This document shows positions 6,660 through 64,000 of a stretch of DNA of 64,000 nt, piece after piece; positions within the stretch are counted from its first letter, which is position 1, and each line of letters opens with the position of its first letter. The position numbers were made by a program, and so were the translations under genes. A model generated the notes under the pieces. The model had not been told where the DNA came from. It saw nothing but the letters and a program-made list of their open reading frames with translations, and searched no databases. This DNA is from a virus (lineage: Duplodnaviria > Caudoviricetes): the IMG/VR virus record IMGVR_UViG_3300029928_000001, positions 32,001 to 96,000 of that record. One strand, 5' to 3'.

Positions 6660-6812
6660 ATGGATAGAAAAGAAATAAGAGCAATCGCTCGTTAGATAGC
6701 GAAAGCAGAAAAGAAAAAAGATTATAGAAAAATTGAAGAGTTAACTTCACAAATAAAATCATTGGAAGATATGATGCGTATAGATAATGAAGTTCAAAAA
6801 ATTATTTCTTGA
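6660..6812 (+). CDS. Small hypothetical protein (needs TAG=Gln at codon 12)
   Basis: AAGGAG RBS; MDRKEIRAIAR(TAG)IAKAEKKKDY...IIS then TGA; follows its own promoter. Confidence 0.65.
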
Positions 6813-6837
6813 CTTTCTAAAATTTTTCTGATATAAT
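6809..6837 (+). promoter_or_regulatory. sigmaA extended -10 promoter
   Basis: TTGACT-N17-TATAAT with TG. Confidence 0.7.
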
Positions 6838-6886
6838 ATATATACAAAATAAAAAATATTTAAAATTTGAAAGGAAACAAAAAATT

Positions 6887-7150
6887 ATGGCAATGTCAAG
6901 CAATAGCATTAAGGTTTTAGATTATTTAAAGAAGGTTAATGGAACACAGGTTACAGCTGCTGATGTAGCAGAAGCTCTCGGCCTTGAAAAGAAGAGCGTA
7001 GATGGTATTTTTACTTCTGCTATTCAGAGAAAGGGTCTTGGCGTAAGAACGCCGGCTGAAATTGAGCTCGAAGATGGGACTCACCGTCAAGTAAAATTTT
7101 TGTCTTTAACGGCAGAAGGTATGAGTTTCTCACCTGAAGATGCTGAATAA
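6887..7150 (+). CDS. Small winged-helix DNA-binding protein
   Basis: VTAADVAEALGLEKKSVDG helix-turn-helix pattern followed by a wing ending LTAEG. Confidence 0.6.
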   Translation: MAMSSNSIKVLDYLKKVNGTQVTAADVAEALGLEKKSVDGIFTSAIQRKGLGVRTPAEIELEDGTHRQVKFLSLTAEGMSFSPEDAE

Positions 7151-7255
7151 TTCGTTGGGCAAAACGAGTTAAGTTCTTAATAATAAATTTTATAAAGTAT
7201 TGAGAGGAGAAGATAACTCTTCTCAATACTTTTTTATTAAGAAAGGAATTTAACT

Positions 7256-8101
7256 ATGTTAAGCATAAAAGAAATTGAAAATATTTTAAATTGTTCTTTG
7301 TCTGAAGAAAAAAGACAAGAAATTTTAAAATTAGATGATTATTCGGATTCAATTAAACGAGCGAATTTAATTGGTCAACAATTTAATAGATTATTAGTAA
7401 TTGGAAAGGGACCTCAATATATTAGTCCAGGCGGGGCTAAACAAGTTCAATGGTGGTGCATTTGTAATTGTTCTAAACACAATATTATTTTAGCTAGAAC
7501 AAGTAATTTAAAAAGTAAAAATACAAAATCATGTGGTTGTTTAAATTTAGAGAAATCAAGAGAACGTATTATTGAATTAGGACATAAAGCTGCTATTAAT
7601 ATTACTAATCAACGTTTTGGTAAGCTCGTTGCTATTGAAAAAACTGAAAAACGCCATCAAGGTTCAATTGTATGGAAATGTCAATGCGATTGTGGAAATA
7701 TTTGTGAAGCACCAACTAATGCTTTAAGAGCTGGACGTAAATATTCATGTGGTTGTTTAACAGAATCAAAAGCTTCATTTAATATTAAACAATTTTTAAC
7801 TCAAAATAATATTGAGTATATTACAGAAAAAACTTTTGAAACTTGTAAATTTCCAGATACAAATAATTCTGCGCGTTTTGATTTTTATCTTCCTAAATAT
7901 AATTTACTAATTGAATATGATGGAGAACAGCATTTTCAAGAAAGAGATAGAAATTATTTCAAAGATTCTTTAGAAAAACGTCAAAAGCATGATATTTTTA
8001 AAACACAATGGTGTCAAAATAATCAAATAAAACTTTTAAGAATTTCTTATAAAGAGCAAGAAAATATTGAAGAAATTTTAAAGAAAGAATTAAAAATATA
8101 A
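7256..8101 (+). CDS. Free-standing putative homing endonuclease (Zn-binding repeats + Vsr/PD-(D/E)xK-like domain)
   Basis: Two W.C.C.CG...SCGC repeats; C-terminal RFDFYLPKYNLLIEYDGEQH. Confidence 0.7.
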   Translation: MLSIKEIENILNCSLSEEKRQEILKLDDYSDSIKRANLIGQQFNRLLVIGKGPQYISPGGAKQVQWWCICNCSKHNIILARTSNLKSKNTKSCGCLNLEKSRERIIELGHKAAINITNQRFGKLVAIEKTEKRHQGSIVWKCQCDCGNICEAPTNALRAGRKYSCGCLTESKASFNIKQFLTQNNIEYITEKTFETCKFPDTNNSARFDFYLPKYNLLIEYDGEQHFQERDRNYFKDSLEKRQKHDIFKTQWCQNNQIKLLRISYKEQENIEEILKKELKI

Positions 8102-9087
8102 TGGAACAAATATTACTAAGTATAATTATTGGTTTTATTGGTGGAGTTGTATTTTACTTTTTTGTTACTCGACCTAAATTAAAAAAAGTTAAAAAATATA
8201 ACTCTGAGATAGAAGAGAAAAATAAAGAATTAGAACAATAGTCTAAAAATCTATAGATAAAAGTTATTCAAGAAACAGAATAGTATAATTCACTTGTTTC
8301 TAAGCAAGAGACTTTAAAAAATTCAATTACGACCCTCGAAGAACAAGCTCAATCCGCAAGTGATATTTTTTATAAAGAAAAAATGAAATTAGCGGAAACT
8401 AATTTTGCCAATAATACAGAAAAGCTTGCGCAAGAATACAATGAATTAAAAGAAAACTGTGAAAATGAATATCTTTCTCTTTTGGAAGAAGAAGCTAAAC
8501 GTTTTAATACATTGCTTACAACCAATAGAGAAGAATTAAAACAATTGGAAGAACAATTAGCCGCACAAAAGCGTGCTGTTCAAGCTGCTATTGAAGAAGC
8601 TAAAAGACAACAAGAAATAGAAGAGCAAGAAGAATTTTATAAAATTAAACTATCAGAACAAGATAAAGAAGAAATTGCGCGATTGCGTACAGTTATCCCT
8701 TATCTTCGTTCGGCGGAACCAATTAATAAGGTTATTTGGAGTGTTTATTATATGAAACCTTTAAATGATTTAATTGGTCGATTGATTGGTAAAGAAACTA
8801 AATGCGGAATTTATAAAATTACTAATATAAAAAATAAAAAAGTTTATATTGGGCAAAGTGTTAATATCTCAGAACGTTTTAAACAACATGTGAAGCGAGG
8901 AGTGGGCGCAGAAGCGCCAACACGCAATAAACTTTATCCAGAAATGAATGAATTCGGTCCGGAGGGGTTCACATTTGAATTTTTGGAAGAGTGCTCGAAA
9001 GAACAATTAAATGATAGAGAAAAGTATTGGATTGAATATTTTGATTCATATACTTATGGTTATAATAGCACGACAGGAGGTTCTTAA
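8101..9087 (+). CDS. N-terminal TM helix + coiled coil + GIY-YIG nuclease domain protein (3 in-frame TAG)
   Basis: ATG 8101 is in frame with the 8383 ORF, separated only by TAGs; hydrophobic N-terminus ILLSIIIGFIGGVVFYFFV; GIYKITN..KVYIGQS. Confidence 0.75.
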
Positions 9088-9794
9088 TGATTTAGTTTGA
9101 ACATACAGAAGTTTATGGATGGGAAGCTGCCATAAGGGGTATGCGCAACCCTAAAAACAGTTGGGATAAAAGTGATAGTTATGCTGCTGTTGATTGTGAG
9201 AGTTGCGGATTAATTGAAGAAAAAGGAATTTGTAAAAAAGAAGATAGAATTGGTAGATGTCGTGAATTTGAATGTTATAAAATTGGTCCAAATGATTTAA
9301 AATTGATGAAAACATTGCGTCAAGCGGGAACTGATCATCGTAAATATCTTAGAATGATTACTGTCTCTGTTGATATAACAGCTCCTCTCTATTGGTGGAA
9401 AGAAGCAGACACCTATAAGGTGAACACAGTTGCCAACTCCTGTAGCACAATGCATAAGCTTATGGCAAAACCATTTGAAGCTAGTGATTTTAGTTGCGAA
9501 CATCTTACTGCTTATAGTATGAAACATCTTGATGATTTAATTATTTATTTAAATTTAATGAGAGATACTTATTTAACTTTAATAAACAATAATCCAGAAG
9601 CAGCCAAAGAAGTATGGTGGCAAGTAATTCAACTATTGCCGACTTCATATAATCAAAAGCGCACATTTTTATTAAATTATGAAGTTTTAAATAATATGTG
9701 CCATTCGCGAAAAAATCATAAGTTAGATGAATGGTCTATTGGTTTTATGGACTGGGTAAAAACTTTACCATATGCGGAGGAATTAATATTATGA
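9087..9794 (+). CDS. Conserved phage protein, possibly ThyX-like (TAG at codon 3)
   Basis: AGGAGG then MI(TAG)FEHTEVYGWEAAIRGMRNP; DITAPLYWWKEADTYK, NSCSTMH and RKNHKL motifs; ThyX-like fold is recalled, not verified. Confidence 0.5.
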
Positions 9795-10036
9795 AACCTG
9801 AAGTAATTATATTAAAAGAAGAAAAAGATAAAAAAGTAATTATTGAAGATGTGGATGAACTTTTAAAAATATTTAATAAATTTTATGCAGCTGGATATCA
9901 GGATGGAAGAGAAAGTAATATAACTATTACGACGCCTTCATCTCAGTCTGGACAGTCTTATGGCAGTGGCATTGCAGTTCCAGATTGGTCACAAAAAATT
10001 ATTTATACCACTGCTAGCAATGATAGTAAAAATTGA
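9791..10036 (+). CDS. Hypothetical protein
   Basis: GGAGG RBS, ATG overlaps the upstream stop. Confidence 0.6.
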   Translation: MKPEVIILKEEKDKKVIIEDVDELLKIFNKFYAAGYQDGRESNITITTPSSQSGQSYGSGIAVPDWSQKIIYTTASNDSKN

Positions 10037-10061
10037 CTAATGTAAAAAAATATGGTATAAT
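10033..10061 (+). promoter_or_regulatory. sigmaA extended -10 promoter
   Basis: TTGACT-N17-TATAAT with TG. Confidence 0.7.
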
Positions 10062-10098
10062 AAATATATAAAATAAATAAAGTAAAGAGAGGAAATTA

Positions 10099-10458
10099 AT
10101 GAAAGGAAAAAATGATTTTATTAATTATGTAGAAAAAATATTAAATGAAAATGAAATCTCAGAAGATGGTTTGAAATTTTGGAAATTTTTTAAAGAAAAT
10201 AAAGATATTGAAAAACCTCTATTTACTGAAAATGGGAAAAAGATTTTTATTTTTTTAAGAGAAAATTTAGACACTGAATTGTGGAAGTCAAAAGACATCG
10301 CAGAACGCTTAGGAATTTCCTCTCGTAGCGTATCAGGGGCAATCCGCAAATTAGTATCTGATAATTTCGTTGAAAAAGTAAGTGTCGAGCCAATTATTTA
10401 TACGTTAACTGAATTTGGAAAAAATTATAATATTGAAGAAAGTGAGAATAATAATTAA
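10099..10458 (+). CDS. Winged-helix DNA-binding protein
   Basis: KSKDIAERLGISSRSVSGAIRKLVSDNFVEK..YTLTEFG. Confidence 0.7.
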   Translation: MKGKNDFINYVEKILNENEISEDGLKFWKFFKENKDIEKPLFTENGKKIFIFLRENLDTELWKSKDIAERLGISSRSVSGAIRKLVSDNFVEKVSVEPIIYTLTEFGKNYNIEESENNN

Positions 10459-11393
10459 TGAAAGCAAAATTTGAGAATATTACACACATCGAAGGTTATG
10501 TTTATGAACACGATTTAAAGTTAAAAACTTCTGGACCAAATTCTAAGAATCCTGGAACTCAATTTATTTCCGGCGATTTAAAAGTTGCTACAGATGAAGA
10601 ATGCTTAAATGTAATTACAGTTCATTTTACTTATGTAACACCAACAACTGCAAGTGGAAAAACTAATGCCACTTTTACAGTTTTAAATAATATTATTGAA
10701 AAGTCTTATAAAACAGTTATGGAAGCAGGCAAGGAAAGTGCTGTAAAGGTTAGAATTGATTCTGCTCTTGATTTAAATGAATTTTATGACAAAGATGATA
10801 ATCTTGTTTCTGCTAAGAGAAATGAAGGTGGCTTCGTTCATGTAACGACTGATTTGAATGAAGAAAAAATGAGAAATACATTTAAAACAGATATGGTTAT
10901 CACTAATGTTCGTAGAATCGAAGCTGATGAAGAAAGAAAATTGCCAGAAAAAGTAATTGTTAAAGGTGCCGTATTTAATTTCAGAAAAGCATTATTGCCG
11001 GTTGAATTTAGTGCAACAAGCGAAGGCGCAATGAATTACTTTGAAAGCTTAGAAGTATCTACTTCTAATCCTGTATTTACAAAGGTATGGGGACGGCAAA
11101 TTTCTACAACTGTTGTAACTACTCATGTAGAAGAATCTGCTTTTGGTGAACCAGAAGTAAGAGAAGTAAAGAGTTCCAGAAAAGATTGGGTAATCACTGG
11201 AGCTGCTACTGAAACTTATGTATGGGGCGAAGAAGACACAATCACTAATGAAGATTTGAAGAAATGTATGGCTGACAGAGAACTTCATTTAGCAGAAATT
11301 AAGAAGAGAAGAGACGAATGGAGAGCTTCTCAAGGTAATGCAATTCCAGCTGCTACAGTAGCTTCTACTCCAGAAGGCGAATTTAAATTTTAA
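10458..11393 (+). CDS. Putative single-stranded DNA-binding protein
   Basis: Beta-rich protein with acidic/aromatic tail (PEGEFKF), directly upstream of the AAA-helicase-primase block; function inferred from position. Confidence 0.45.
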   Translation: MKAKFENITHIEGYVYEHDLKLKTSGPNSKNPGTQFISGDLKVATDEECLNVITVHFTYVTPTTASGKTNATFTVLNNIIEKSYKTVMEAGKESAVKVRIDSALDLNEFYDKDDNLVSAKRNEGGFVHVTTDLNEEKMRNTFKTDMVITNVRRIEADEERKLPEKVIVKGAVFNFRKALLPVEFSATSEGAMNYFESLEVSTSNPVFTKVWGRQISTTVVTTHVEESAFGEPEVREVKSSRKDWVITGAATETYVWGEEDTITNEDLKKCMADRELHLAEIKKRRDEWRASQGNAIPAATVASTPEGEFKF

Positions 11394-11414
11394 TAAGAAG
11401 GGAATGTATAAATA

Positions 11415-14400
11415 ATGGCAATTAATTTATTGAATATTCAACCACATAAAGTCAGTAAAGACTTAAGCGGTTATATCACATATATTTATGGAGCTTAAAT
11501 CGGGGCTCCCTACGCGGTAACACGTAGAAAACAATTCCTATAAGAAACTGGAACCCTTGCTATTTATAGTATTGTGGAATCAGAGCGGAAGTTATAATTT
11601 AAAAGTTATAACACGCGCAACGCATAGATATATAAAACTTAATTTTAAAAGAAAGGAGTGTCCAAAAATGGATACCAGATTATTACCAGAAGCTATTGAT
11701 TTTTATAATCAAGGTAATTCAATGAATAAAACAGCAAAACAATATAATAGTACTCCACAAACTTTAAAAAAACTTTTTATTTCTAATGGAGTTAAGATTA
11801 GAAACCAAAAAGAGCAATTAATTTTAGAGAATATAAAAAGAGCAAAGCCTATTAATCATACTTATTTTGATAAATTAACTAATGAAAATAGTTATTATTT
11901 AGGATTTTTAGGTGCCGATGGAACTGTAAGAAAAGATAGAAATGAAATTAAAATCGGTTTATCTTCAATTGATTTAAGTTTTTTAGAAGAATTTCAAAAA
12001 AAATTACAATCTGAAAGACCAATTCATAATTATCAAACTAATAATGGTTTTGACGTTTCCGAATTAATCTTTTCTTCTGCTAAAATAAAAGAAGAAATAA
12101 TGAAATATGGGATTGTCCCTAATAAAACTTATATAGGTTTAAATTTAGATTTAATTCCACAAGAATTTCAATTGCCATTTATTAAAGGTTTCTATGATGG
12201 TGATGGTAGTGTAGTTTATAACCAAAACACTAAACAAGTAAAATTAACTTTTTGTTCATATACAAAAAAGATATTAGAACAAATTAATATTTTTTTTAAT
12301 AATAAAGGACATATTTACTCTAACCAAAGGACAAAAAATATAATTTATGAATTAGATTTTTCTACATTGCCAAGTTTGGATATTTTAAAACAATTTTATG
12401 AATTAGATACACCTTGTTTAATTCGTAAATATGAAAAATATCTTAATATTTTAAAATTAAGACAATAAAATCCACGAGATAGGAACTCCTCAGACGAGGA
12501 TGAAAAGTTATGCTGAACTGGGTCGGAATTGACCGACCGTTAAAATGAGAGAAATCTCCAGAAGTAGAAGATAAAAAGCTTCTACGATAACAGCTCGTTG
12601 CCGAAAACGGGCAAAACAACTCTGGCTACGCAAATGGGAGAAGCATTACTTTTAGCATTCGAGCAAGGATATAATGCTCTTCCAGGCGTTATCGCTCAAG
12701 ATATTACAACTTGGGGACAGATGAAAGAAGTTTATAGAGAACTTAAAAAGCCAGAAGTAAAAGAACATTATAAAGCTGTTATTGTTGATACTATCGACAT
12801 TGCAGCCGACAGATGCAAAAAATATATTTGTAATCAAAATGGTATTGAGGACCTTGGTGAACTTGGATACGGTAAAATCTTTGCCGCTTAATATAGTAAT
12901 ATATTAATGAAAATGTAGTAAAAAGCTGGAAAGCTAAGTTATATAAAAATAATACGCTAATCAGAGGTGAAGGCTAAATTTAAAAGTTTAGTCAGCCGCA
13001 ACGCATAGAAAAATAAAACAATAAAGAAAGGATTTGTCTAGGCATGGGAAAAATCATTATTCCACAAAAACAAGTAGAAAAAATTATATATAATTATCAA
13101 GTATTAAAAATGGCACAGGGAAAAGCCGGTCAAGAATTTGGCTATTCTGCAAAAATTGTTAAAAGATTATTACAAGAAAATAATGTTTATATTAGGAGTC
13201 AATCAGAATCACGACAACAATATCACATCAAAGAAAATTATTTTAATACAGAAACTTCTAATATGGCTTATATTTTAGGATTATTAGCATCAGACGGATG
13301 TGTAGCAAGTAATAAAAATTTAATATATATTGAATTACAGCGTTCCGATAAAGAATTATTGGAAAAAGTAAATCAAGAATTAGAAAATGAACGTCCAGTG
13401 AAAGATTATTGTGCTTCAAACGGATATGAAAATAGCAAAATTTATTTCTATTCTAAACAAGCTAAAGAACAATTAGCAAAATATAAAATTATTCCAAATA
13501 AAACTTATAGCGAAAATTTTGGGTTTCCTACAAACTTACAAAAAAAATATTGGATAGATTATATTAGAGGCTATTTTGACGGAGACGGATGTATAAAAGA
13601 TTCAAATCATACTCCAACTTGGGAAATTAATTCTGTAAATTATGAAATTATTGAAACAATTCAAAAATTTTTCTTAGAAGAATTTAATATTCAATTAAAA
13701 ATTCAAACTTTTATAAATAATAGAAAAATTCCAATGTATAGAGTATATTGCTATGGACAAGAAAATTGTCATAAAATTTTTGATATATTATATAATAATA
13801 CAAATTTGTTTTTAACAAGAAAAAAAGAAAAATTTAAATCTTTATTGAAATAATTTTCCACGAGACTACATATCTCTTGTATGGAGATAAAAAGTTATGC
13901 TGAACTTATAGGAAACTATAAGAGCTATAGGATAAAAAGCCTATAGGATAACAAAATTGAAAGGTTGGACCAAGTTTAAAGATGAATTTAATGAAGTCTT
14001 TAGAGGTTTAACTCAATTAGGATACGCCGTTTTCTTTATCGGACATGATAAAGAACAGTTTGTTGATAATCCTGACGGTACTCAATCTAGAATTATTAGA
14101 CCAGCCCTCTCTAATTCAACTAGAGAAGTCATTTCTGGTATGGCTGATATTTATGGATATGCTCATCAAAAATATGCTGGTGAAATGTCTGTATTAACTC
14201 TTAGATGCACTGATGGAAGTATTTCTTGCGGATGTCGCTTTAAGTATCTTCCAGATGAAATTACAATGAGTTATGATAATTTAGTAAATGCTTTACATGA
14301 AGCTATTGATAAAGAAGCTGCAGAACATGATAATCAGTTCGTTACTGAAGAACGCGCTACGGTAGTCCCAGAAACTCCAACATATGATTTTGACGCTCTT

Positions 14401-14586
14401 ATGAAAGAATTTGAAGGATTGGTTGGAGAGCTTATGAATAAAAATCAAACTTATTACGCTCCTAGAATTACTGAAGTTGTTAATAAATACCTTGGCAAAG
14501 GGCGCAAGGTTTCCGACGCAACACCTGCGCAAGCTGAGTTTATTCATTTAATCGTAAAAGAAATTAAAGAAGATTTAATGTCTTAA
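11415..14586 (+). CDS. Phage AAA (Sak4/AAA_24-like) ATPase, spliced; exons 11415-11495, 12601-12873, 13960-14586 (326 aa)
   Basis: Joining the exons restores Walker A YGA|PKTGKTT, Walker B VIVDT and ELGYG|KGWTKF. Confidence 0.85.
11496..12600 (+). mobile_element. Group I intron 1 in the AAA gene (variant P7)
   Basis: 5' exon ends in U; IGS GGCTCC pairs GGAGCT; TCGG pairs 3' exon CCGA (P10); P3 TTCCTAT/ATAGGAA; P7 GCATA/TATGC; terminal G. Confidence 0.85.
11668..12468 (+). CDS. Intron-encoded double-motif LAGLIDADG homing endonuclease
   Basis: YYLGFLGADG and FIKGFYDGDG motifs; AAGGAG RBS before ATG 11668. Confidence 0.9.
   Translation: MDTRLLPEAIDFYNQGNSMNKTAKQYNSTPQTLKKLFISNGVKIRNQKEQLILENIKRAKPINHTYFDKLTNENSYYLGFLGADGTVRKDRNEIKIGLSSIDLSFLEEFQKKLQSERPIHNYQTNNGFDVSELIFSSAKIKEEIMKYGIVPNKTYIGLNLDLIPQEFQLPFIKGFYDGDGSVVYNQNTKQVKLTFCSYTKKILEQINIFFNNKGHIYSNQRTKNIIYELDFSTLPSLDILKQFYELDTPCLIRKYEKYLNILKLRQ
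12874..13959 (+). mobile_element. Group I intron 2 in the AAA gene (variant P7)
   Basis: IGS CTTT-GCCG pairs 5' exon CGGT and 3' exon AAAG; P3 TGTAGT/ACTACA; P7 GCATA/TATGC; ends ...AAAATTG. Confidence 0.85.
13044..13853 (+). CDS. Intron-encoded LAGLIDADG homing endonuclease
   Basis: YILGLLASDG and YIRGYFDGDG motifs. Confidence 0.9.
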   Translation: MGKIIIPQKQVEKIIYNYQVLKMAQGKAGQEFGYSAKIVKRLLQENNVYIRSQSESRQQYHIKENYFNTETSNMAYILGLLASDGCVASNKNLIYIELQRSDKELLEKVNQELENERPVKDYCASNGYENSKIYFYSKQAKEQLAKYKIIPNKTYSENFGFPTNLQKKYWIDYIRGYFDGDGCIKDSNHTPTWEINSVNYEIIETIQKFFLEEFNIQLKIQTFINNRKIPMYRVYCYGQENCHKIFDILYNNTNLFLTRKKEKFKSLLK

Positions 14587-14593
14587 TTATAAA

Positions 14594-14629
14594 AAGCCTG
14601 GTTAAATTCTAACCAGGCTTGATTTTTTT
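14594..14629 (+). terminator. Rho-independent terminator
   Basis: AAGCCTGGTTA-aattc-TAACCAGGCTT followed by a T tract. Confidence 0.75.
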
Positions 14630-14647
14630 GTAAAAATATGATATAAT
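14619..14647 (+). promoter_or_regulatory. sigmaA extended -10 promoter
   Basis: TTGATT-N17-TATAAT with TG. Confidence 0.7.
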
Positions 14648-14681
14648 ATTTATATAAACTATAGAAAGGAGTTAAAGAATA

Positions 14682-15209
14682 TTGGCAAAACATTATGTAA
14701 AATGTTATTATTGCGGCGAAAAATTTGATGCTAATGAAGAAGAATATGTTATGATTAATTCTCGTCGTTATGCTCATAAAAAATGCGCTGAAAATAAAGA
14801 ACAATCTTTAACTCAAGAACAATTAGATAAAATCGCATTTGAAGAATATGTAATGAAAATATTTAAATTAGAATATATAGAACCTCAAATGCAAATGCAA
14901 ATTAAACGCTTTATAGAAAAGAATAATTTTACTTATTCTGGTATGCGCAAAGCATTAATTTATTTTTATGAAGTAAAAGGAAATCCAATAGAAAAAGCAG
15001 GAAAAAGTCTCGGTATTATACCTTATGTATATCAAGACGCATATCGTTATTATTTTTCTATTTGGCAAGCGCAACAGCGTAACCAAGTAAAAGAAATAAA
15101 GCAATATATTCCACAAGTAAAAGAAATTATAATCCCAATTCCGCAGTTACAACCTAAAAAAGAGCGAGAATTGTTTAAATTTTTAGATGAAGAACAGGAG
15201 AAACAATGA
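14682..15209 (+). CDS. Zn-finger protein upstream of the helicase (possible helicase loader)
   Basis: CYYC...HKKC; position between AAA and DnaB resembles the SPbeta-type replication gene order. Confidence 0.55.
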   Translation: MAKHYVKCYYCGEKFDANEEEYVMINSRRYAHKKCAENKEQSLTQEQLDKIAFEEYVMKIFKLEYIEPQMQMQIKRFIEKNNFTYSGMRKALIYFYEVKGNPIEKAGKSLGIIPYVYQDAYRYYFSIWQAQQRNQVKEIKQYIPQVKEIIIPIPQLQPKKERELFKFLDEEQEKQ

Positions 15210-17827: not shown

Positions 17828-18933
17828 TTAATTATGATAAAGATTTCATAAAAGAACAAATTACAGACGAAAATGTTTTTAATCTTCTCCAAGATTTTGG
17901 TGGCAATCCAATAGACAATGGTAAAGCAATAGTTTCTGACACGATATGCCACAATGAACCAGGCGTAGGGAGCCATAAGCTTTACTATTATAAAGCTAAT
18001 AAAATGCTTTATTGTTATACTGGTTGTGATGAACCAAGTTTTGATATATTTGAATTAACTCGTAAAGTTTTTCGTATTCAAAAGAATAAAGAATTAGATT
18101 TCAATGATGCAATACGCTGGGTCGCGCAAAAATTAAATATCATTGTTCAATTAGACAATATTGATCCAGAAGATGATATATTAGAAGATTGGCATTATTT
18201 AGATAATTATAATCGCATTCAAGAAATTGAATTATCTACAAATAATGTTTTATTAAAAGAATATGATAAAAATATTTTAAAACGATTTAATTATAATATT
18301 GCGCTTACTCCTTGGCTGCGCGAAGGCATATCCCAAAAAGTAATGCAAGATAATCAAATAGGATATTATCCTGGTGAAGAACAAATTACGATACCACATT
18401 TCGATATTAATAATAAACTTATAGGCATTAGAGGCCGTTCATTAGTAGAAGATGAAGCAAATAAATATGGTAAGTATAGACCTTTAAAAATAAATGGAGA
18501 ATTATATAATCATCCATTAAGTATGAATTTATATAATTTAAATAACTCTAAAGAAAATATACAAATTATGAAAACAGCTATTTTATATGAATCAGAAAAA
18601 AGCTGTTTAAAATATCAAAGTTTTTTTGGGCAAGAAAATGATATATCAGTAGCTGTTTGCGGCTCTGCCGTTTCAGAATTTCAAATTCATTTATTAATAC
18701 AAAGTGGGGTAAGGGAAATTGTTTTAGCTTTTGATAGAGACTTTGAAGAATTGGGTGATGATCGTTTTAAACGATTAAAAAATAAAGTTTCTAATTTATC
18801 AAAAAAATATAGTAATGATGTGATTATAAGTATTATATGGGATAAGGAAAAAATTACAGGTTTAAAATCAAGCCCAATTGATGAAGGACCAGAGAAATTT
18901 TTACAATTATTTAAAGAAAGAATTATTTTATAA
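17824..18933 (+). CDS. DNA primase
   Basis: N-terminal Zn motif TICHN..CYTGC, IPHFD..GIRGR, TOPRIM YESEKS and AFDRD. Confidence 0.8.
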   Translation: MINYDKDFIKEQITDENVFNLLQDFGGNPIDNGKAIVSDTICHNEPGVGSHKLYYYKANKMLYCYTGCDEPSFDIFELTRKVFRIQKNKELDFNDAIRWVAQKLNIIVQLDNIDPEDDILEDWHYLDNYNRIQEIELSTNNVLLKEYDKNILKRFNYNIALTPWLREGISQKVMQDNQIGYYPGEEQITIPHFDINNKLIGIRGRSLVEDEANKYGKYRPLKINGELYNHPLSMNLYNLNNSKENIQIMKTAILYESEKSCLKYQSFFGQENDISVAVCGSAVSEFQIHLLIQSGVREIVLAFDRDFEELGDDRFKRLKNKVSNLSKKYSNDVIISIIWDKEKITGLKSSPIDEGPEKFLQLFKERIIL

Positions 18934-18987
18934 CAATTTTAATTAAAAAATAATAAATAAAAATTAAATAAAAAAGGAGAATGAAAA

Positions 18988-20754: not shown

Positions 20755-20797
20755 ATATACACATCCGGCCTAATATGATTATGTTAGGAGGACATAT

Positions 20798-21598: not shown

Positions 21599-21612
21599 GC
21601 CCCCTTATTTTT
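21587..21612 (+). terminator. Rho-independent terminator
   Basis: AAGGGGGC-ataa-GCCCCCTT then ATTTTT. Confidence 0.75.
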
Positions 21613-21737: not shown

Positions 21738-21767
21738 ATATATAGAAGAAATAGATAGAAAGGAAAT

Positions 21768-47817: not shown

Positions 47818-47834
47818 TTTTAATCTCCTTTTTA

Positions 47835-51742: not shown

Positions 51743-51754
51743 TCAAATCCCTCC

Positions 51755-54700: not shown

Positions 54701-54826
54701 GACATTATTAATTTTGGCATCTATATAAAATTTCCCATCATCTGGCGTAAACCAAGCATAGCCCTCATTTAATGACTATTTCGCCAAATCGACAGAATTA
54801 CCTTTACTTATTTTAAATAAAGCCAT
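51755..54826 (-). CDS. Long tail fibre-like protein (1023 aa, multiple TAG)
   Basis: Three ORF fragments in one frame; MALFKISKG start; DAATKNYVD motifs; three VYQNG repeats. Confidence 0.8.
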
Positions 54827-54911
54827 TTGTTCATTTTTCTCCTCTCTGAGTAAGATTTTTTATTCTATAGATATATCACGAATCTTTATTTTTTTTTAAT
54901 AAAAAAAGACC

Positions 54912-54946
54912 AAAAAAAAAGTGAGTAGGATATTAATCCTACTCAC
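54912..54946 (-). terminator. Rho-independent terminator
   Basis: GTGAGTAGGAT-atta-ATCCTACTCAC hairpin with a T9 tract on the minus strand. Confidence 0.75.
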
Positions 54947-55569
54947 ACGTCTTTCCACATTGTAGTTGCATTAGATTGCGCAAGGGCTAAATCCGCATAT
55001 ATCTAATGAACAACCGTTGTATCTAATTTAAATTTTTCTAATTCTTTATCCGATAAATCTATACCATGTAAAACTTCTCCTTGAGCTGGCTACATACTCA
55101 TATTAAAAAGAAAAGTTTTACGTTCTGCATCTAATTGATAAAAACGCACTGTGAAAGTTACAGTCCCAGATGAGGCCGTCACTAAACCTTGTATTGACCA
55201 AGGAATTAGCATTAAAGGAGTTAAACTTTCATCATCATCTTCATACACATCCACATTATAGTAAGGAACCCAATACAATCCGCTTTCACCGGCTGCATTA
55301 ACATATTCAATAATACAAACCGTCATAGCCAAATCCATATTGTCAAAATAACGAGGACATCTAAAGTAAATTATTTCTGCGTTATGATCATACTGGACGC
55401 TCAAAAATTGAGGGATACTGATCGTCCTAGAATCTAAGTCAATATCAAAGATTTGATCATTTTCTGGGAGTAAATGCACTAACTAAGGGTATCTCTGACC
55501 TTTTTCGTCTTCATAATTTTGAATCTGGAGTAATAAATCTTCATAAGATTCAATCTTTGTTAATGCCAT
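54943..55569 (-). CDS. Baseplate-like (BppU N-terminal-like) structural protein (3 TAG)
   Basis: IDLDSRTISIP..SVQYDHNAEIIYF..RYFDNMDL; GTVTFTVRFY; paralogous to the N-terminus of 55585-57627. Confidence 0.6.
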
Positions 55570-55584
55570 AATTCACACCCCTTA

Positions 55585-57627
55585 TCAACCTGCGACAGTA
55601 ATAGAAATACAATCGTCTACTGTAAAGTTTGTTATATCATTAACGGCTTCACTACCATTAACGGTATTTTTAGCAATACAATAATAGAAACCTTGACCTG
55701 CCAATTCTCCATTTTGTAAAGTAATATGGTCTGGACGGAAAGCTATTAAGCACTTATTACCTTCAATTGTAATACAATTGTCTGTATCTACAATTAAATC
55801 GTCATTAGAAATTACAAATTTATCGCTTACGCTACCATCTTCATTGTAATCCGCATTAGCTTTACGCCATTCAAAAGTAATACCATCGCCATCGTTAGTA
55901 TGTAAAATAGCATCTTGATTTACAACAACAGCTTCAAGAATAGCAGTTTGAGAAGCTGTTTTTAATCTTACATTCTTAGAACCAGTGTCTTTTTGCCCAA
56001 TAGTTACTTCAGGAGCATGCGCAGAGTCAGTAATTCTAAAACTCTAAGATTTAACTTCAGATTTTTCACCATTTCTAGTAGCATATACATCAACTGTAAC
56101 TGTTGCATCATATAAAGCTCTATCTTCGACAGCTACTGGGGCAATACTATACTCATTAGCGACAGGAGAAGCAACATTAGTTGTTTCTATAGGGGTTTCA
56201 CCATTCCAAGTATAAATAATAGTATCGCCTACAATACCAGAAGCATCATCAGTTACTCTTGCCGTTTTACCTAAAACAGATAATGTTGCTTGCCCAACAC
56301 CTTCTGGACCATCTATAAGCAATACATTTTCAGATTGCTTTTCTGGCAATTCTACGGTAAAAGTATCTTTATCTGGACCTGGTATTAAAACCTTTTCTTT
56401 AGCAAATCCTTTAGCTTGACCTACTTTATTAATTGCAGTTGCTATATAAATACCAGTAACGTTTTTATCATCTAATCCATTTGGATAAACAACCTTACAA
56501 TGACTAACTTTTTCATAAAGTCCAGCGTCAAGAACTTCTTGATCGATCGGTTGGTCTTTCATACCAGGAGCAACTGTAAATACAGAATAAGAAGTTACTC
56601 CATCAGCCACTGTTTTTACATAATAAAGTTTTTCACCCGAATAAACAGTATCTTCAGTCAATACATATTGAGTACCAATATTAGGACCACTTTCAAGAGT
56701 CATTTCATTACCAGTGGACAAATCCTTTCGCTGCCATGTATAAGAAATAATGCCCTCGCCCGTTGCTTGGATTATAAAATCCCTTTGGAGTACAGAATTA
56801 TTTTCTTCATCAACTATTTTTTCAAGATCAATAGCATCATATTCTACTTCTTTGCCGTCTTCCATGATAGTAAGTTTATAAGTTTTATCAAGATGACGCA
56901 AGAATACTGGTGCATCAGCTTCTCCTACTTCGCCTGGTTGTACACTATCACGAAATCTATTAGCAATCATCTAAGAATCATCATAAATAGTTTCTGCAAA
57001 TTTTCCAGTATCTTTATTCCAAGTAAAATCAAGACCAGGGTTAATAGTAGCTTGCGCAGTTAATGTACTTAAACTAAAATCGAGTTCTTGCTTAGAGTTG
57101 AATTTATAAAATCTTACAGAAAATTTAATTGAGCCAGCATTTTTCGTAATAGAATTATTAATCGCCCAACCAAATAACATTTTTCCTGTAGTTTTATATA
57201 AAGATATATCTTTTAAATAAGCAACTGAATAACCTCTCTCTGATGGTCCTCCTTTTGATGCAGCTGTTTCCCATTGGATAATAATATGAACCTCGTCAAG
57301 AAATAAGTCCATTGCATCTACAAATCGATCAATCGTAAAATAAATAATTTCAGAAATTTGATCGCCCTGAACAGAGATACCATTTTTTCTAAACTCATCT
57401 GGTACATTGATTTGACGTGTATTTGCATCAATGTCAAATGTAGGCTCATCTAATGGCAAAATACCATAAATTTCATTCTTGCCTACGATTTCTACGAGAG
57501 AATTGAAATATTGATCTAAGGAAGTAATTGCATTATTGCTTTCTTCAGTAAGACCAAGTTCTTTATTCACTTTTTCAAATAAAACTTGGTATAAAGCTTT
57601 ATTTTCCTTAGTTACTTTCGTAATCAC
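55585..57627 (-). CDS. Baseplate/tail structural protein with Ig-like repeats (680 aa, TAG readthrough)
   Basis: ORFs 56971-57627 and 56044-56970 abut in frame at TAG and extend to TGA 55585. Confidence 0.7.
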
Positions 57628-57702
57628 TTTCTTATCATCCTTTCTTTAAAATTAAGAGGAGAAGAATAACTTCTCCTCTTATATATTAATTATTTTATTA
57701 AA

Positions 57703-57903
57703 TTATTTATCAACTTCTGTCCATTTATCTAAATCTTTTTCAGAAACATTAATAGAGGTAACTTCTTGTTCACCGTCAGTTAATATTTTTCCCTCATCCG
57801 CAGCAAGATAATAAAAAGAAGTATTATAAACGCCAGGAAGTTCTATTGGAGTTTCAATATATCCATTTACGCCTAAATAGCGGAAAAATTTATTTTTAAT
57901 CAT
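57703..57903 (-). CDS. Small phage tail-associated protein
   Basis: AAGGAG RBS; LAADEGKILTDG..WTEV. Confidence 0.6.
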   Translation of the reverse strand: MIKNKFFRYLGVNGYIETPIELPGVYNTSFYYLAADEGKILTDGEQEVTSINVSEKDLDKWTEVDK

Positions 57904-57915
57904 ATTTTATCTCCT

Positions 57916-60900
57916 TTATGCTAAAATACCTTCAACAGTAGCAGTAGCTATAACTTTATCCGCCAAACCAAATTTTAATTGAGTAATAGTTTGATCGCTA
58001 TAAGGTTGGCCAGCAGAATAATAGTAAGTAATTTTAAAGACATTTGCAAGACTACCGCATCCACCAAATGGGCCATCTCCTACGGCACTCAACTAAGAAG
58101 GATTTCCTGAGCTACCAATATAAACTTGAGTTAATGCTTTATGATTTCTGAAAGCGCCACTATCCATAAATATTAAATTACCTGGTAAATATAATGTCTG
58201 TAAAGAGAAATTACCAGTAGAAAAGTTAATAGCAAAAGCATTTGCTTCAATTCTTGTAACTCTACTGAAAAACATTTTCTATTCTTCAGCAGACAAATTC
58301 TGGATAATATTTGTATAATAAAAACTATTACTTCCGAGCGTAACACTTTCAGCTACAGTACTCATTTCATAATAAACAAGTTTTAAGCATTCTCTAAAAG
58401 CATTTTCTTCTATTGTTGCCACTCTATTATTCGTATCTTCAGAATAGAATATATGAGTAATTTTATTTTGTCCAGCGAAACCACCTGCACTAATACCAAT
58501 AATATCTATGTCATTATAGGTTGTTGGCAAAGTAATTTTACCACTCAATTGAACTCCAGAAGCAACTGAAATATAATATCCACCGTTTCTTTGTGCAAAA
58601 CTCAAATAATTACTATCAAGAACATTACTATACACAGATTTTTCTTCATATACAGCTATAAATTCATAATCCATAATTGGATGAACATTAGCCATATCTA
58701 AAACTCTACTCGGCGCTGTGCGCATTGCCCAACCAGCAAATCCCCAAACACCAGTCAAATCAAGATCGTCTGCTGGTTTAGATGGTAAAATTTTAATTAC
58801 ATTAACAGGATTGGTTCTGCTATATGGCGTTTCTGTTGTACCTAACTCTGTGCCGTCATAATTATAAAATGTAGCTTTATACTTATGTAATTCAAAAACT
58901 GCATAAAGAGTTACTACATTATCTACAGCCAATTCTTCAAAATTAATTCCCATCCAAATATCATCATAATAATTATCATCATCACTTTGTTTTGGACTAA
59001 TAATTACTCCTTCTTTTGTACCATCTTTAGACCATCCATAAAAGTCATAATTATTTTTGCTAGGAACTAATGTGATATTTCTATTAGGGTTAGAAAAATA
59101 TTCATTATCGCCGGAATAAGCGCGACCTTCACAATGTAATGCTTTTTGGGCTTCATATACTTTAGTTAAACCAGTTACATCATCTACCTAAATATATTTA
59201 ATAGTATAGTTATTCTAAACTTTAGCTACTCGTATATCTAAAGATGGGTAAAGCACATTATATGTTTGAATCTCAACTTCAGAAATTTCCGTACCATTAG
59301 TATTATCTACATAAATTTCACCAGATACATAAGGCATATTTGTATTATATACTGTATCATGGAATTGCGGAGCATCTTCAGAGCCGGCATCTTTCTTAGA
59401 TTGGACGAATTTGTCAATAATTTCCATAGAAGGAATTTGACTTCCATCTTTATCTGCATTCTTTATGAAAATTAAGCTATTTTTGCGTTTATTTATAAAT
59501 GTTTCATCCGATGGATCAATTTCTACATACTGATAATGATCGTTCAATTCATAATAAGTAATCGTACCATCTATTACCGCAGCTGTATCTAATAATTCAA
59601 ATGGAGTCCATTGAACATTTTCTAATCTTAAAGCAAGTCCTGGTTTATTTGTTGGAGTGGTTTTCTTAATCTTACGAGCTAAAGCTGTTTTAACAATTTG
59701 ATAAGAATCATAGCCTAAACTATCATTTTTAATTTCAATAGTAGATAAAGCTAAATTTTCGGCAGAAATTACATCAATTAATTCAGTAATCGTTTTGCTT
59801 CTATCAATAATATTAGTTAAACCATCAATATATAAACCTTTGACTTCTGCATTTTCAGCAACATTATCAGAAATTTTTTCAGTAATGATATTAATTAAAT
59901 TATAATTAGTATTCAAAGCAAGTGTAGTGACAGTAGACGGTAAGTGCATAATGCTAATAGGAGCACCAATAGCTACTTTACAACCAGTAATATTAGTATT
60001 TAATGCTCTAAATTCTTCAATTTTAGCAGAACCACTTATGTCAATATTTGCTGAATCTGCCTTAATATTTTTTAAACCTGTCAAAACGACTTTCTTTAAA
60101 AGAGTTTTTGCGTTTTCATTTGGAGATTCTGTAGTATCTGCCGAGTCTGCTAATGAAAGCGTAACAGAGTTTTCATTATAATATCCATCATCATCATTAC
60201 CTAATACTAATTCAGTTAATCTAATACTAGATTGTAATTGAATTTCATCAATATACTTCATATCTAATCCAGAAACTTTAGAGAGATAATTCGCTCCTGG
60301 GATATAAACTAATTGTTGAGTAAATGGCACACTAGTTTTATAACCAGCTAACACATTTTCAGGCACTACTGGCAAAATATATTGCATAGTATTAGTAAAT
60401 TTCTAAGGTACAGTTACCGTAGTATCATCATAATACATAGAAACATATTGAGATAAGAATGGTGTAATTTGATAATAAGGAGTACCATCGAGAGGTAAAC
60501 ATTCAGAAGGATTAGCTCCTAATTTACCAACCTAGAACCCAGATTTCTTTTGTTCATCGGTTAATGTTGTTACATCTAACCATCTATCACTTGTTGAAGT
60601 AGAGTTTGCGCTCGCTCGTAATTTTAATGAAGTAGTACTAGAAGCTCCAGTAGGTGAATAAATATTAGCCTACATTTCACTATCTAAATAATTCATTCTA
60701 TTACGAATTAAAAGTTGACGGGATAAATCTCTATCACCCTAGCAAGCGTAGAAGAAAGAATTACCATTATCTTGCACCCAATTGCCGGCAGTGTTAATAT
60801 AGCCATAATCAGTGCCTTTTCCTACCTCTAATGTCGGCAAAATATATTTATACTCAAAATCAGAATTCAATGCAACTAAAGGACGCACTCCTTTACAAGC

Positions 60901-63900
60901 ATAAGAAGTTGTAAAAATTTCTGGCGAACAACGATAAGCTTTTTCAATAAAGTTTTCATTTAAATTCGCTAATCTCATTTGCTGATATTTTTGTTTTATT
61001 TCATCAAGAAAACAATATAACAAATTATACCATAATACACTATTTGCCGTTGAGAACGTCTCAGCGCCAGCCGCCGCATTTACAGAAGCATCTACGTCAT
61101 AATCCCATGTTGGAATACCAGTATTATTAATACCTAACTGAGTATCAATGTCATAAAAAATTGGGAACCAAATATATTCTCCATCTTTTTCCATTGGACC
61201 CCAAGACGCAATCATCATATTCTTACCACGAGAATCATAACAAAGTAAAAGCTCTGTCATAATAAAATATACTAAACAATATTCTTTATTAAGATGTTTA
61301 TCAAATTCAGAAATAAACTTAGCCCTTCTATATTCTCTCGTATCATAATTATATGTAGTGCCATCAATTACTTTTGGAGGATCAAAAGTATATTTAGCAA
61401 CTGCTTCTTTATTAGCCTCAATCGGTCCTTGCTCTTTTTGCGCCGTTATTGCAGCTTCAGTATCTTCAATAATTTTTTGTTGTTCTGGAATAGCTGCAGT
61501 ATTAGTTTCAATATTTGCTTGTAAATCTGCGATTTGATTTTGAATTGACTATTTTTCTTCTTCGGTTAAAGTAGTATCAGTAGCTAACTTAGCCTATAAA
61601 GTTTCAATATCCTTGTTCGCAGAATTAATTAAATAATTTAATGTATCAATTTGCGCTTGCGCATCTGCAATTTTTTGTCGATAATTCTTTAATGTATCTC
61701 CATATAACAAATTTTCTTCATCAGTATAGCTATTCGCTGCTATATCAACCTCTTGAAACCACTTGTAAAGTTTTTCAATATTCTTATAACGTTTCAAAAT
61801 CAAACTATTATAATCTGCTTTAGTAGCTTTAGCTTCACTTTGTGCATCAATTAATTTTTCCTATTCTGCAATATTATTTCTATAAACATTTATTCCATTC
61901 GCTGCTTCTAATTCATCAATTTGCTTTTGAATTTTCTTCTTTTCGTCTTTATCTTTAGTAGTTTCTAATTTCTCTTCTAAAGCTGTTAATTGAGAATCTA
62001 ACTCTGGGTTGGCCTCACGAATTTGTTTAATTGAAGCTTTTTCCTATTTAATTTGATCTTCATATGGTTCAATATCATCTTCATATAAAGGTGATTCAAT
62101 TTTTCCGCGAGTTGCAGCTCCTTCGACGCCCGCGTAACAAATATCAAGATTATCATCATCACTATTATATCTATATTCTAAGTGGTCAATAATTTCTAAA
62201 ATACCCTTGTTATTTAAACGACCCTTATCTTTTTCGCTAAATCCAGTTTGACCTTCGTAAGGGAATTTAAAAGAACAATAGTTGCCTTGATTATCAGCCA
62301 TTTCCCAACATTCAACAATTTTTTTGAAAGCTTTTCCTCCTGCAAATGGATTGCAGTCTGAGCCTTCAACTTTTTCCATTTTCTTTTTTTCTTCATTATA
62401 TTTATAAGTGCCGTCATATTTAAATCCATAACTATCATCTGAACCTTTATCTAAGTTCATATTATATCGGCCAATATATTGATAGTCTAAGCCGCCAGAA
62501 TTATTTTTAACGGCATGGAAAGTTAATACTGGGAAACCTTGAACTGAAGTACGATATGTCTTTAAAATATTATCTTCAATACCGGAGAAAGATTCTTTAT
62601 CAAATGCTTTATAATAATCTAACGGATGTTTTTCATACATATAATGTACCATATTAGCAAATCCTGTATTATAAGATCCAGAAGATTCCATAAAGTCTAT
62701 TTTTAAGGTAAATTTATTATTATGTACGACAGAATTTTCTATGTCCATACACCATACATTAGTACCTTTTCCTGTTATATCTCTATCTTCAGTGTTTGCT
62801 CTTGGACCACCGTTATATCTCCAATAGTCTGCATTTTTAAGTTTTAGCTTATAATTACGCCTTGGATAAGCTTGTGAAGACGTTCCTTGCACATCTAATT
62901 CACCTCCATAAGCTATAAAGCTTGGACAATGATATGCATAATAATCTGCCGTCGTCATATCGGCAAGCTTATTAGTAATTGTATCTAAATCTCCATTTTC
63001 ATAAGCATAGTCTAATGCTGGGTTTACAAAAGTAGTTTTTACATAACGAGCTTTTCCTTTTAAATAAGGAAGATTTTCATCATCAATTGGCATTGGCACA
63101 ACATCTTCTAAGTTCTTTTCATTAGCTGGAGTACCATCATCGGTTCCATAAGTAGCACCAGTGCCAATATTATCTACTGTTTGAATAATCAAATATGGCA
63201 TTGTTAATAAATCAGGTCTGCCATTTTGCCTTTGTGTTTGATTATATTGTAATAATTTATTATAATCAATTACTGTTAAATTATTAATATTATTAGAAAT
63301 TTGATTTTGGTCATAATCAATAATATTTCTTAAATCAGATAAATAATTCTATACAATTGACCAAGAGTCAAGAGCACCATTATATACTCTAACAGCATAC
63401 AAATCAACGTCACAATATTGTGAATTAATTGTGATATATTTTACTGGAATAGAAAAACCACGATTACCACCACTAGAAGAGATAGTAGAAATACCAGTTA
63501 ATAAACCATTCACATAAATATATACTCTACTTAAAGATGGATTATTATTAGATGAAACAACATAAGAAATATTAAATATTTCATCTTCTTTATATTTAGC
63601 ATTTACATACTCTTGTCCTGTACCAAAATAACTTTCTTGAGTTCCTAAAGCAAAGCCTTTAGAATCAGAAAGATAAGAAACACAAATACCTTTGTTTGTC
63701 GATACTGTTTTTTCAACCTTAATAATCTAAGATTGAAATTCATCCTATTCTACAAAACTGTCTGGATCTTTTGAACCTTGACTTTCCGCATAGCTAACTA
63801 ATTCATCCCAAGATAAATATAAATCTTGACCTTTAAGTTTATATTTTGTTGTATTTTTAATTAAAGTATCATAACTTGTAATATTTCTAATTTTTAATCT

Positions 63901-64000
63901 AAATTCAAAAGTATAATTCTAACTACCATTTTGATTTAAATTAATACCAACTTGCCCTGCTTCACTTAATGGAATCTAAACCGAAGCACCATCTGAAATT
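57916..64000 (-). CDS. Giant tail-associated protein (>2000 aa, 5' end outside window): LamG-like, CotH-kinase-like, coiled coil and BspA-type LRR regions
   Basis: Six ORF fragments share one frame and end in TAG; QGTSSQAYPRRNYK, DSRGKNM, FYDIDTQLG; IEENAFREC repeats; TAA at 57916. Confidence 0.75.

Follow-up and report, generated by a model that had tools for sequence, protein, structure and literature searches.

The genes of this tailed phage are very probably written in a code in which UAG is decoded as glutamine, and the recoding would serve as a translational gate on the late genes. Four independent lines of sequence evidence indicate that TAG specifies glutamine in the phage genome, where it is used mostly in the late genes for tail and head: the coding cover, TAG columns that behave like glutamine columns in alignments, a tRNA(CUA) encoded elsewhere in the genome, and a gene for release factor 2 (RF2) with SPF and GGQ motifs. 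The 64,000 nucleotides analysed here (the window) are one part of the genome of a gut-type phage of ~178 kb; the source genome measures 178,419 bp and encodes a tape measure of 2730 aa. The host is probably a member of the Bacillota, and the named matches of the portal protein are phages infecting Bacillota. Phages with TAG-to-Gln reassignment (genetic code 15) are already well documented, so that the finding, though correct, is no novelty: the phenomenon, the late-gene bias and the association with RF2 and a tRNA have all been published, and no new question is opened. An earlier sequence-only reading of the window had noted that such recoding occurs in gut phages and had described it here as genome-wide. 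The pattern agrees with that of the phages with alternative codes studied by Borges et al. TAG is indeed a sense codon in the late genes, but the left arm is nearly free of it, usage is uneven and in a few early genes a TAG lies on the ancestral stop or next to it.

Coding cover and distribution of in-frame TAG

Cover of the two arms of the window was computed from greedy ORFs. For the right arm (minus strand, 41.3-64 kb) cover was 0.625 under code 11, 0.935 when TAG was treated as sense and 0.631 when TGA was; the fragmentation of this arm under standard annotation, and its repair under table 15, had both been anticipated from the sequence. The left arm, which holds the replication genes, changed from 0.887 to 0.893. 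Over the whole genome cover rose from 0.69 to 0.89 with TAG as sense and to 0.705 with TGA as sense, and in a complete relative that uses the standard code (G003), taken as negative control, from 0.860 to 0.867, a gain of only 0.007. The naive whole-genome value also climbs, from 0.69 to 0.83, when TAA is made a sense codon, an effect of the spurious frames that this opens in DNA rich in AT. Since this inflates the metric, reliance was placed on the G003 control and on homology across TAGs.

In-frame TAG occurs 333 times in the genome, 64 of these in the tape measure. Within the window ~25 ORFs contain at least one, of which ~21 are credible, since a few TAGs sit in spurious N-terminal extensions (for example 1841-1858); the earlier reading had counted more than 20 genes broken only by TAG. 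The codon is commoner in late structural genes than in those for replication. Per 1000 codons it occurs 1.1 times in the left arm and 7.9 times in the right, rising to 12.7 beyond the window, and its share of Gln-like codons is 3% for the left arm compared with 20-28% for late genes.

Replication genes and TAG codons near gene ends

The replication and nucleotide-metabolism block (244..40215, plus strand), which includes ligase, helicases, RecJ, DNA polymerase and dUTPase, is nearly TAG-free, with 13 TAG in 12,076 codons, and can be read with the standard code. Some of its TAGs are nevertheless real internal codons. Two genes at 8101..9794 (plus strand) contain TAG at 8239, 8254, 8281 and 9093; for the gene at 8101-9087 a single HSP to G003 covers residues 5-322 across the TAGs (E 7e-76), and for that at 9087-9794 the alignment begins at residue 2. 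The RecJ-like exonuclease (18988..20754, plus strand; phrog_2484 at 7e-148) has a TAG at codon 8 (19009), which is crossed by alignments to three relatives that begin at Met1. A GIY-YIG homing endonuclease (31881..32774, plus strand) lies between two DNA-polymerase ORFs and has an internal TAG at 32478. Searches of the window and of the related locus L007 with Rfam at gathering thresholds gave no match, so that suspected introns are unsupported.

It had been claimed that every confidently called gene ends in TAA or TGA. This holds, but at three places it is indistinguishable from termination at TAG: TAG 24918 lies three codons ahead of the TAA of an HNH endonuclease (23967..24932, plus strand), where it cannot be told whether it is a stop or a sense codon, TAG 32772 directly precedes the TAA of the GIY-YIG endonuclease, and TAG 42146 is separated from its TAA by one codon. 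TAG may have two meanings: until the suppressor builds up, host RF1 would terminate a subset of early genes at TAG, and late genes would use it as glutamine. We regard this as quite possible, while inclining slightly against it, and it would refine the main explanation, not exclude it. Two genes outside the window are suggestive. The sole TAG of the gene at 152900-153298 (genome coordinates) falls on the column of a TAG stop in G003 and a TAA stop in G001, and the gene at 152507-152881 (genome coordinates) has a TAG 1-2 codons from the stops of its relatives. In the surrounding plus-strand block (143.5-154 kb) four of 20 code-11 ORFs end in TAG, a share near the TAG-stop rate of G003 (18%). 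TAG is enriched in the last five codons of genes in this block (P 0.014) and in the left arm (P 0.015), and no such enrichment is found in late genes (P 0.75). The numbers are small, however, with 2 observed against 0.2 expected per block, and just one case is column-exact; a TAA or TGA follows 0-16 codons after the TAG, so harmless read-through explains the same data, and the left-arm genes with real internal TAGs also weigh against a second meaning.

TAG in the late structural genes

The late structural block of tail fibres and virion proteins (41836..64000, minus strand) uses TAG as a sense codon, with 59 in-frame TAG in 18 genes, and continues past the window to ~143.5 kb of the genome. 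TAG accounts here for 20% of Gln-like codons. At the window edge lies a 2524-aa virion protein, of which the C-terminal 2027 codons are in the window (57916..64000, minus strand) and whose ORF reaches window position 65490. It contains 23 TAG, 17 of them in the window, and no TAA or TGA in 2524 codons; as TAA and TGA together occur off-frame in the same block at ~8% per codon, this is not due to chance. Its homologues in two relatives, G003 and G004, are stop-free open frames of 2488 and 2683 aa, and TAG 60739 stands opposite Gln in three relatives.

The genes that follow, all on the minus strand, show the same interruption. A 680-aa protein (55585..57627; TAG 56971 and 56044) had no family match and gave one weak match by tblastn and none in a search of related loci; beside it is a 208-aa protein with three TAG (54943..55569; 55483, 55090 and 55003). 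The 1023-aa tail-fibre-like protein (51755..54826), assigned to PHROG tail fibre families, has eight, of which 54776 and 53624 lie mainly opposite Gln in relatives. Seven are present in a 726-aa protein (49562..51742) that carries an ALK/LTK glycine-rich domain, the PF12810 match (1.9e-45) covering two of them, and two internal repeats, identical at 72 of 201 positions when aligned to each other. These repeats had been put forward as an internal control, and at two of their five TAG columns the other repeat does have a codon for Gln (GTGT-Q-YIDT against SSGS-TAG-YINT, and TN-TAG-T against TN-Q-S). One TAG each is found in two genes encoding 310 aa and 269 aa (47835..49577).

A 233-aa tail-fibre protein (45842..46543, minus strand) has TAG at 46430 (TNNT-TAG-AASTAFV) and 46307, and PHROG tail fibre matches run across both; a PDB sequence search with it returned no match. 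The proposal that 46430 is a glutamine site is upheld by related phage DNA, which has CAA there in four of five distinct instances. Among aligned database homologues this column is Q in 20 of 39, where a database Q may be CAA/CAG or a translated TAG. The 79-aa Gln-rich protein (43919..44158, minus strand), likewise singled out beforehand, has five TAG, of which 44099 is Gln in 23 of 28 relatives and 44138 in 19 of 25. Three further minus-strand genes of 176, 140 and 260 aa (42143..43903) have TAG at 42194, 42146, 43071 and 43457; 43071 is opposite Gln in 24 of 25 relatives and 42194 in 16 of 23.

On the plus strand, a 160-aa protein (41339..41821) has two TAG (41543 and 41708), and a 242-aa protein with one, at 44804 and opposite Lys, is followed by a 144-aa holin that has none (both in 44708..45825; holin phrog_13712 at 2.6e-33). 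The RuvC-like resolvase (40567..41268, plus strand; Pfam RuvC and PHROG resolvases) has TAG at 40804, 40846 and 40696. Its domain begins at ~40789, and TAG 40696 probably precedes the genuine start codon. Glutamine had been expected at 40804. Within the phage lineage this is so: the standard-code relative G003 and six loci have Gln in this column and 15 recoded loci have TAG. In RuvC of E. coli, however, the residue is Pro. All four codons that the sequence-only reading had cited were located exactly where it placed them, with CAA at 50762-50764 and TAG at 50150-50152 and 46430 on the minus strand, and TAG at 40804 on the plus strand.

Decoding genes outside the window

As had been observed, there is no tRNA in the window. 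The suggested search of the full genome found both a tRNA(CUA) at genome 9907-9978, on which ARAGORN and the Rfam tRNA model (44 bits) agree, and a gene for RF2; a tmRNA is also present outside the window, within the tRNA array. The tRNA(CUA) shares U1, G2, G3, G73, U35 and A37 with the identity set of E. coli GlnRS, and has A10 and A38 in place of G10 and U38. When it was compared with 60 phage tRNAs typing was ambiguous, the closest being tRNA-Trp and only the 5' acceptor strand being tRNA-Gln-like, and by sequence it is not clearly Gln-like. Searches with this tRNA by blastn of five complete relatives and four bacterial genomes gave nothing or chance non-tRNA matches. No GlnRS was found encoded in the phage genome, and charging would be by a host enzyme.

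RF2 recognises UAA and UGA and not UAG. The phage gene scores 398 bits against TIGR00020, for which the cut-off is 370, and itself contains zero TAG. It is confined to the TAG-recoded members G000, G001 and G011 and occurs in none of eight standard-code relatives, and since four complete TAG-recoded relatives are without it, it must be dispensable. The best match of this RF2 comes from a phage-like contig of 4.2 kb that was placed in the bin of an Absicoccus MAG. Its use as a host marker was rejected; bacterial RF2s are all 43-55% identical to it, with no clear donor.

The amino acid inserted at TAG

Alignments to relatives span 189 of the 333 in-frame TAGs. With G003 as reference, Gln is found at 28% of 138 TAG columns, compared with 33% of true CAA/CAG columns and a background of 3-4%; in the right arm of the window TAG columns are 26% Gln and 6% TAG, and Gln columns 31% Gln. 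The alignment of homologues that had been recommended thus yields a substitution profile like that of Gln columns. No stop lies opposite 137 of the 138 columns, the exception being an early gene outside the window whose TAG is on the G003 stop. TAG at true C-termini of homologues, named in advance as evidence against recoding, was seen for one of the 189 aligned TAGs, which falls on the stop codon of two relatives.

That TAG encodes some other residue (Trp, Lys, Glu or pyrrolysine) is very unlikely. The CUA tRNA is labelled 'Pyl' by ARAGORN, though by convention, and its resemblance to tRNA-Trp would favour tryptophan, but the log-likelihoods relative to Gln (0) are -63 for Lys, -77 for Glu and -212 for Trp, Trp appears at one of 129 TAG columns, most of the 26 standard-code loci have Gln at 24 of 35 TAG sites (compared with 17 of 366 Lys sites), and the paralogous repeats set TAG opposite CAA. 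A decaying or chimeric contig, with TAGs that are lesions of pseudogenes or errors of sequencing or assembly, can be dismissed with near certainty; nothing speaks for it except fragmentation under code 11. Frames are interrupted by TAG only and never by TAA or TGA, the same pattern is seen in 53 of 80 related phage loci (with 5-16 TAG per 1000 aligned codons, frequently in identical columns), decoding genes are present in the genome, and conservation of TAG columns across independent assemblies already refutes this reading. Annotation under code 11 fragments late genes in this genome and in those 53 of the 80 loci sampled.

A possible course of infection

With TAG read as glutamine, infection might proceed as follows. 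Early in infection the TAG-poor genes, that for RF2 included, would be translated by the standard code of the host while the tRNA array is transcribed. The tRNA(CUA), charged by a host enzyme, would build up and outcompete host RF1 at UAG, after which the TAG-rich tail, head and tape-measure genes could be produced, and phage RF2 would maintain efficient termination at UAA and UGA. Recoding would thereby gate the late genes at the level of translation, in line with the proposal of Borges et al. (bioRxiv 10.1101/2021.08.26.457843). Given the real TAGs in RecJ and in the genes at 8101-9087 and 9087-9794, the separation of early from late genes by such a gate is not clean.

Comparison with known recoded phages

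The family to which the phage belongs (~224 members; portals 55-68% identical) has TAG-recoded, standard-code and one TGA-recoded member, so that codes 11, 15 and 4 are mixed in one clade, as among the phages of Borges et al. The nearby standard-code and TGA-recoded members form a good comparative set for the spread of a code change through a genome, and the present phage adds one more large Bacillota-type lineage in which the whole visible kit, a suppressor tRNA and RF2, is present. More tentatively, and against our own leaning, it might be that in this mixed-code family TAG is still a working terminator in some early genes, in the columns that hold the stops of relatives, and glutamine in late ones, with tRNA(CUA), RF2 and tmRNA as the switch kit; if so, one could retrace for each gene the steps by which the code changed.

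Code 15 has been proven by metaproteomics in crAss-like phages (Peters et al., PMC9523058), which share the TAG-to-Gln reassignment but are an unrelated podovirus lineage with Bacteroidota hosts; what was validated there by proteomics is here read from sequence. The alternatively coded gut phages described by Borges et al. comprise Lak, crAss-like, Jade, Sapphire, Agate and others, with a suppressor tRNA(CUA) and RF2 in TAG-recoded Lak and Agate phages (bioRxiv 10.1101/2021.08.26.457843). As in those phages, in-frame TAG is concentrated in structural genes, replication genes mostly follow the standard code, and a suppressor tRNA(CUA) and RF2 are present with no cognate synthetase encoded. The present phage differs in having a tmRNA within the tRNA array, and it could be placed in none of their named clades. 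It differs also in its holin: lysis genes were reported to be the most biased in the recoded codon (bioRxiv 10.1101/2021.08.26.457843), and the TAG-free holin is an observation that counts against the model.

A megablast search of GenBank phages with 23 kb of the window (41-64 kb) gave no match. By portal comparison the nearest published relative is phAss-1 (OQ749652), of the proposed Phassvirus, in which TAG is Gln in virion genes (PMC10607447). It is the best named match of the portal, and the 41% identity by tblastn falls short of genus-level similarity to the Phassvirus group, which would make the two distant relatives at most. The genome is 178 kb here and 136 kb in phAss-1, there is one CUA tRNA here as against three, and RF2 is present here whereas the description of phAss-1 mentions no release factor (PMC10607447). 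The two nevertheless share a large siphovirus-type genome, a tape measure of ~3000 aa and a DNA polymerase III alpha-type replicase, together with TAG as Gln in virion genes, a CUA tRNA and the absence of a synthetase.

Gene layout and reading frames

The window covers positions 32001-96000 of a 178,419-bp sequence, a single IMG/VR virus record (IMGVR_UViG_3300029928_000001) that is rated complete by CheckV. Its G+C content is approximately 31%. The sign of the GC skew changes near window 41-44 kb, the region in which transcription passes from plus strand to minus strand. The left arm (plus strand) encodes replication and nucleotide metabolism proteins (NAD-dependent ligase, helicases, RecJ, DNA polymerase and dUTPase) and the right arm (minus strand) tail-fibre and virion proteins. 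The minus-strand block continues beyond the window, where it includes genes for the portal, other head proteins and a 2730-aa tape measure with 64 TAGs. The DNA polymerase is present as two ORFs (window 27973-31743 and 33089-34384), between which lies a GIY-YIG homing endonuclease gene with two TAGs (31881-32774). A late gene is also split (genome 127828-129988): parts 129545-129988 and 127828-128304 are contiguous and in one frame in the complete standard-code relative G003, and are separated here by approximately 1.2 kb with an endonuclease ORF (phrog_4645), with a TAG at codon 136 coinciding with the break. The arrangement resembles an intron or homing-endonuclease insertion, though Rfam intron models gave no match at the locus.

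Under the standard code (code 11) the minus strand of the right arm is broken up into short ORFs, and reading TAG as sense joins these to give frames 726, 1023, 680 and more than 2027 codons long. The sequence-only reading had proposed a genome-wide reassignment of TAG to Gln (code 15) and a comparison of coding density under the two codes. The gain is present, greedy ORF cover rising with TAG as sense from 0.625 to 0.935 in the right arm (0.631 with TGA as sense) and from 0.69 to 0.89 genome-wide, concentrated at 72-132 kb; left-arm cover is nearly unchanged (0.887 to 0.893). In G003 the same treatment yields a gain of only 0.007, so the metric is not simply inflated. Reading TAA as sense likewise lifts naive cover, as spurious frames open in AT-rich DNA, and homology was therefore relied on rather than cover alone. 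The chosen frames are interrupted by TAG only, and TAA and TGA reach approximately 8% per codon when these genes are read off-frame; chance cannot account for an open frame of 2524 or 2730 codons.

Residues at TAG columns

The four codons cited in the sequence-only reading are each exactly as stated, and its internal control holds at two columns, one beyond its own count, at which the repeats of the 726-aa protein (72/201 identical) pair TAG with a Gln codon. This tail-associated protein (window 49562-51742, minus strand) strongly matches the ALK/LTK glycine-rich domain PF12810 (1.9e-45), whose name comes from animal receptor kinases.

For comparison, phage proteins were aligned, with TAG masked as X, to four related genomes, 80 portal-flanking loci from related phages and 80 loci flanking the fibre gene. 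Against G003 (190 kb, with terminal repeats), 138 TAG columns contain Gln at 28%, Lys at 9% and Glu at 7%, and true CAA/CAG columns contain Gln at 33%, Glu at 12% and Lys at 10%, over a Gln background of 3-4%. This supports the interpretation of TAG as Gln. In an empirical substitution model derived from the same alignments, Gln leads by 63 log units over Lys, 77 over Glu and 212 over Trp. In counts by site, which keep related sequences from being scored repeatedly, Gln forms the majority at 24 of 35 TAG sites and 87 of 154 Gln sites but at only 17 of 366 Lys sites among 26 standard-code loci. The pooled right-arm TAG columns of the window give Gln 26%, Glu 13%, Lys 9% and TAG 6% (Gln columns: Gln 31%). 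Strongly conserved columns include window 43071 (Gln in 24/25), 44099 (23/28), 44138 (19/25), 42194 (16/23) and the RuvC column 40804 (TAG in 15, Gln in 6), and among five distinct instances of the fibre motif in related DNA, four have CAA in place of TAG. The alignment check suggested earlier thus favours Gln, with 137 of the 138 G003 columns free of a stop; the exception, on the relative's stop, is an early gene (genome 152900-153298).

For the fibre protein at window 45842-46543 (minus strand), the protein collection includes the full-length product of TAG read-through (233 aa, 100% identical) as well as a code-11 fragment (134 aa), so some upstream gene callers have already applied code 15 to this DNA.

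Decoding machinery

As previously claimed, no tRNA was found in the window; of the machinery proposed for a full-genome search, a tRNA with anticodon CUA and a release factor are present, and no class-Ic synthetase domain was found in the genome. The tRNA, canonical and 72 nt long, belongs to an array at genome 7.5-10.2 kb and was confirmed by the Rfam tRNA model. It has U1, G2, G3 and G73 in common with tRNA-Gln, and also U35 and A37, but A10 and A38, and the phage tRNA closest to it in sequence is a tRNA-Trp; its sequence does not itself settle the identity of the amino acid. Escherichia coli amber suppressors with a CUA anticodon, including one derived from tRNA-Trp, are charged largely with Gln. 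The same point on CUA suppressors has been made by Borges et al. (bioRxiv 10.1101/2021.08.26.457843).

The same array contains a tmRNA (L003:9176-9465 in genome coordinates, outside the window; Rfam RF00023, 82 bits, gathering score 47), with tag peptide AKNNYRPVLMAA according to ARAGORN. The presence of a ribosome-rescue RNA beside an amber suppressor tRNA could be relevant to ribosomes stalled at UAG.

The release factor 2 (RF2) gene (genome 143,646-144,698) is TAG-free, scores above the TIGR00020 cut-off and encodes SPF and GGQ motifs. A 4.2-kb contig from an Absicoccus sp. MAG bin (CAVJCN010000207.1) encodes an RF2 74% identical to that of the phage, bacterial RF2s being 43-55% identical; this contig is probably a related-phage fragment that was placed in the bin of a Bacillota genome, and gives a weak hint of the host.

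Codes among relatives

Among the 80 portal loci (portals 55-68% identical), 53 contain 5-16 in-frame TAGs per 1000 aligned codons and 26 essentially none. One 175-kb record, L039 (IMGVR_UViG_3300028048_000052; portal 59% identical), shows 21 in-frame TGAs and zero in-frame TAGs in head-gene alignments. Across all 80 loci, the query residue at in-frame TGA columns is most often Trp (13/53, L039 supplying 21 of the 53), and L039 is apparently a family member in which TGA is recoded (code 4). RF2 is present in three TAG-recoded members and absent from eight standard-code members, the TGA-recoded member and four complete TAG-recoded members, and is therefore accessory. The 32-tRNA array of G003 includes an ARAGORN-called tRNA with anticodon UUA (G003:C1:123974-124046), which would decode the ochre stop TAA.

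Uneven use of TAG

TAG is used unevenly. Of Gln-like codons, it accounts for 3% in the left arm, 20% in the right arm and, at 97-143 kb, 28%. TAGs are not wholly missing from the left arm, as alignments to relatives cross them in window 8101-9087, 9087-9794 (codon 3) and RecJ (codon 8). In TAG-poor blocks the TAGs cluster at gene ends. In gene 152900-153298, outside the window, the TAG falls on the column of the TAG stop of G003 and the TAA stop of a TAG-recoded relative, and a neighbouring gene has a TAG within two codons of relatives' stops. TAG is the final codon in 4 of the 20 ORFs called under code 11 in this block, close to the TAG-stop rate of G003 (18%). These small numbers fit a temporal model with early genes still terminated by host RF1. 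Harmless read-through is equally possible, because a backup TAA or TGA always follows within 0-16 codons.

Comparison with known phages

The original observation is confirmed and the TAG-to-Gln interpretation supported, qualified by uneven use, in a kind of phage that is already known. The closest named relative is phAss-1 (PMC10607447), a TAG-recoded phage of siphovirus type that has a 136-kb genome, a tape measure of approximately 3150 aa and a portal 41% identical. More distant named matches are phages of Enterococcus, Bacillus, Lactococcus and Clostridioides, and for this reason the host is probably a member of the Bacillota. Code 15 has been validated by metaproteomics in crAss-like phages (Peters et al., PMC9523058). 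Borges et al. described gut phages with TAG-to-Gln recoding and a late-gene bias, suppressor tRNAs in approximately 40% of recoded genomes, RF2 in the TAG-recoded Lak and Agate phages and clades mixing codes 11, 15 and 4, and proposed a model in which the standard code gives way to the alternative one as infection proceeds. The phage described here shows exactly the same pattern as those alternatively coded phages.
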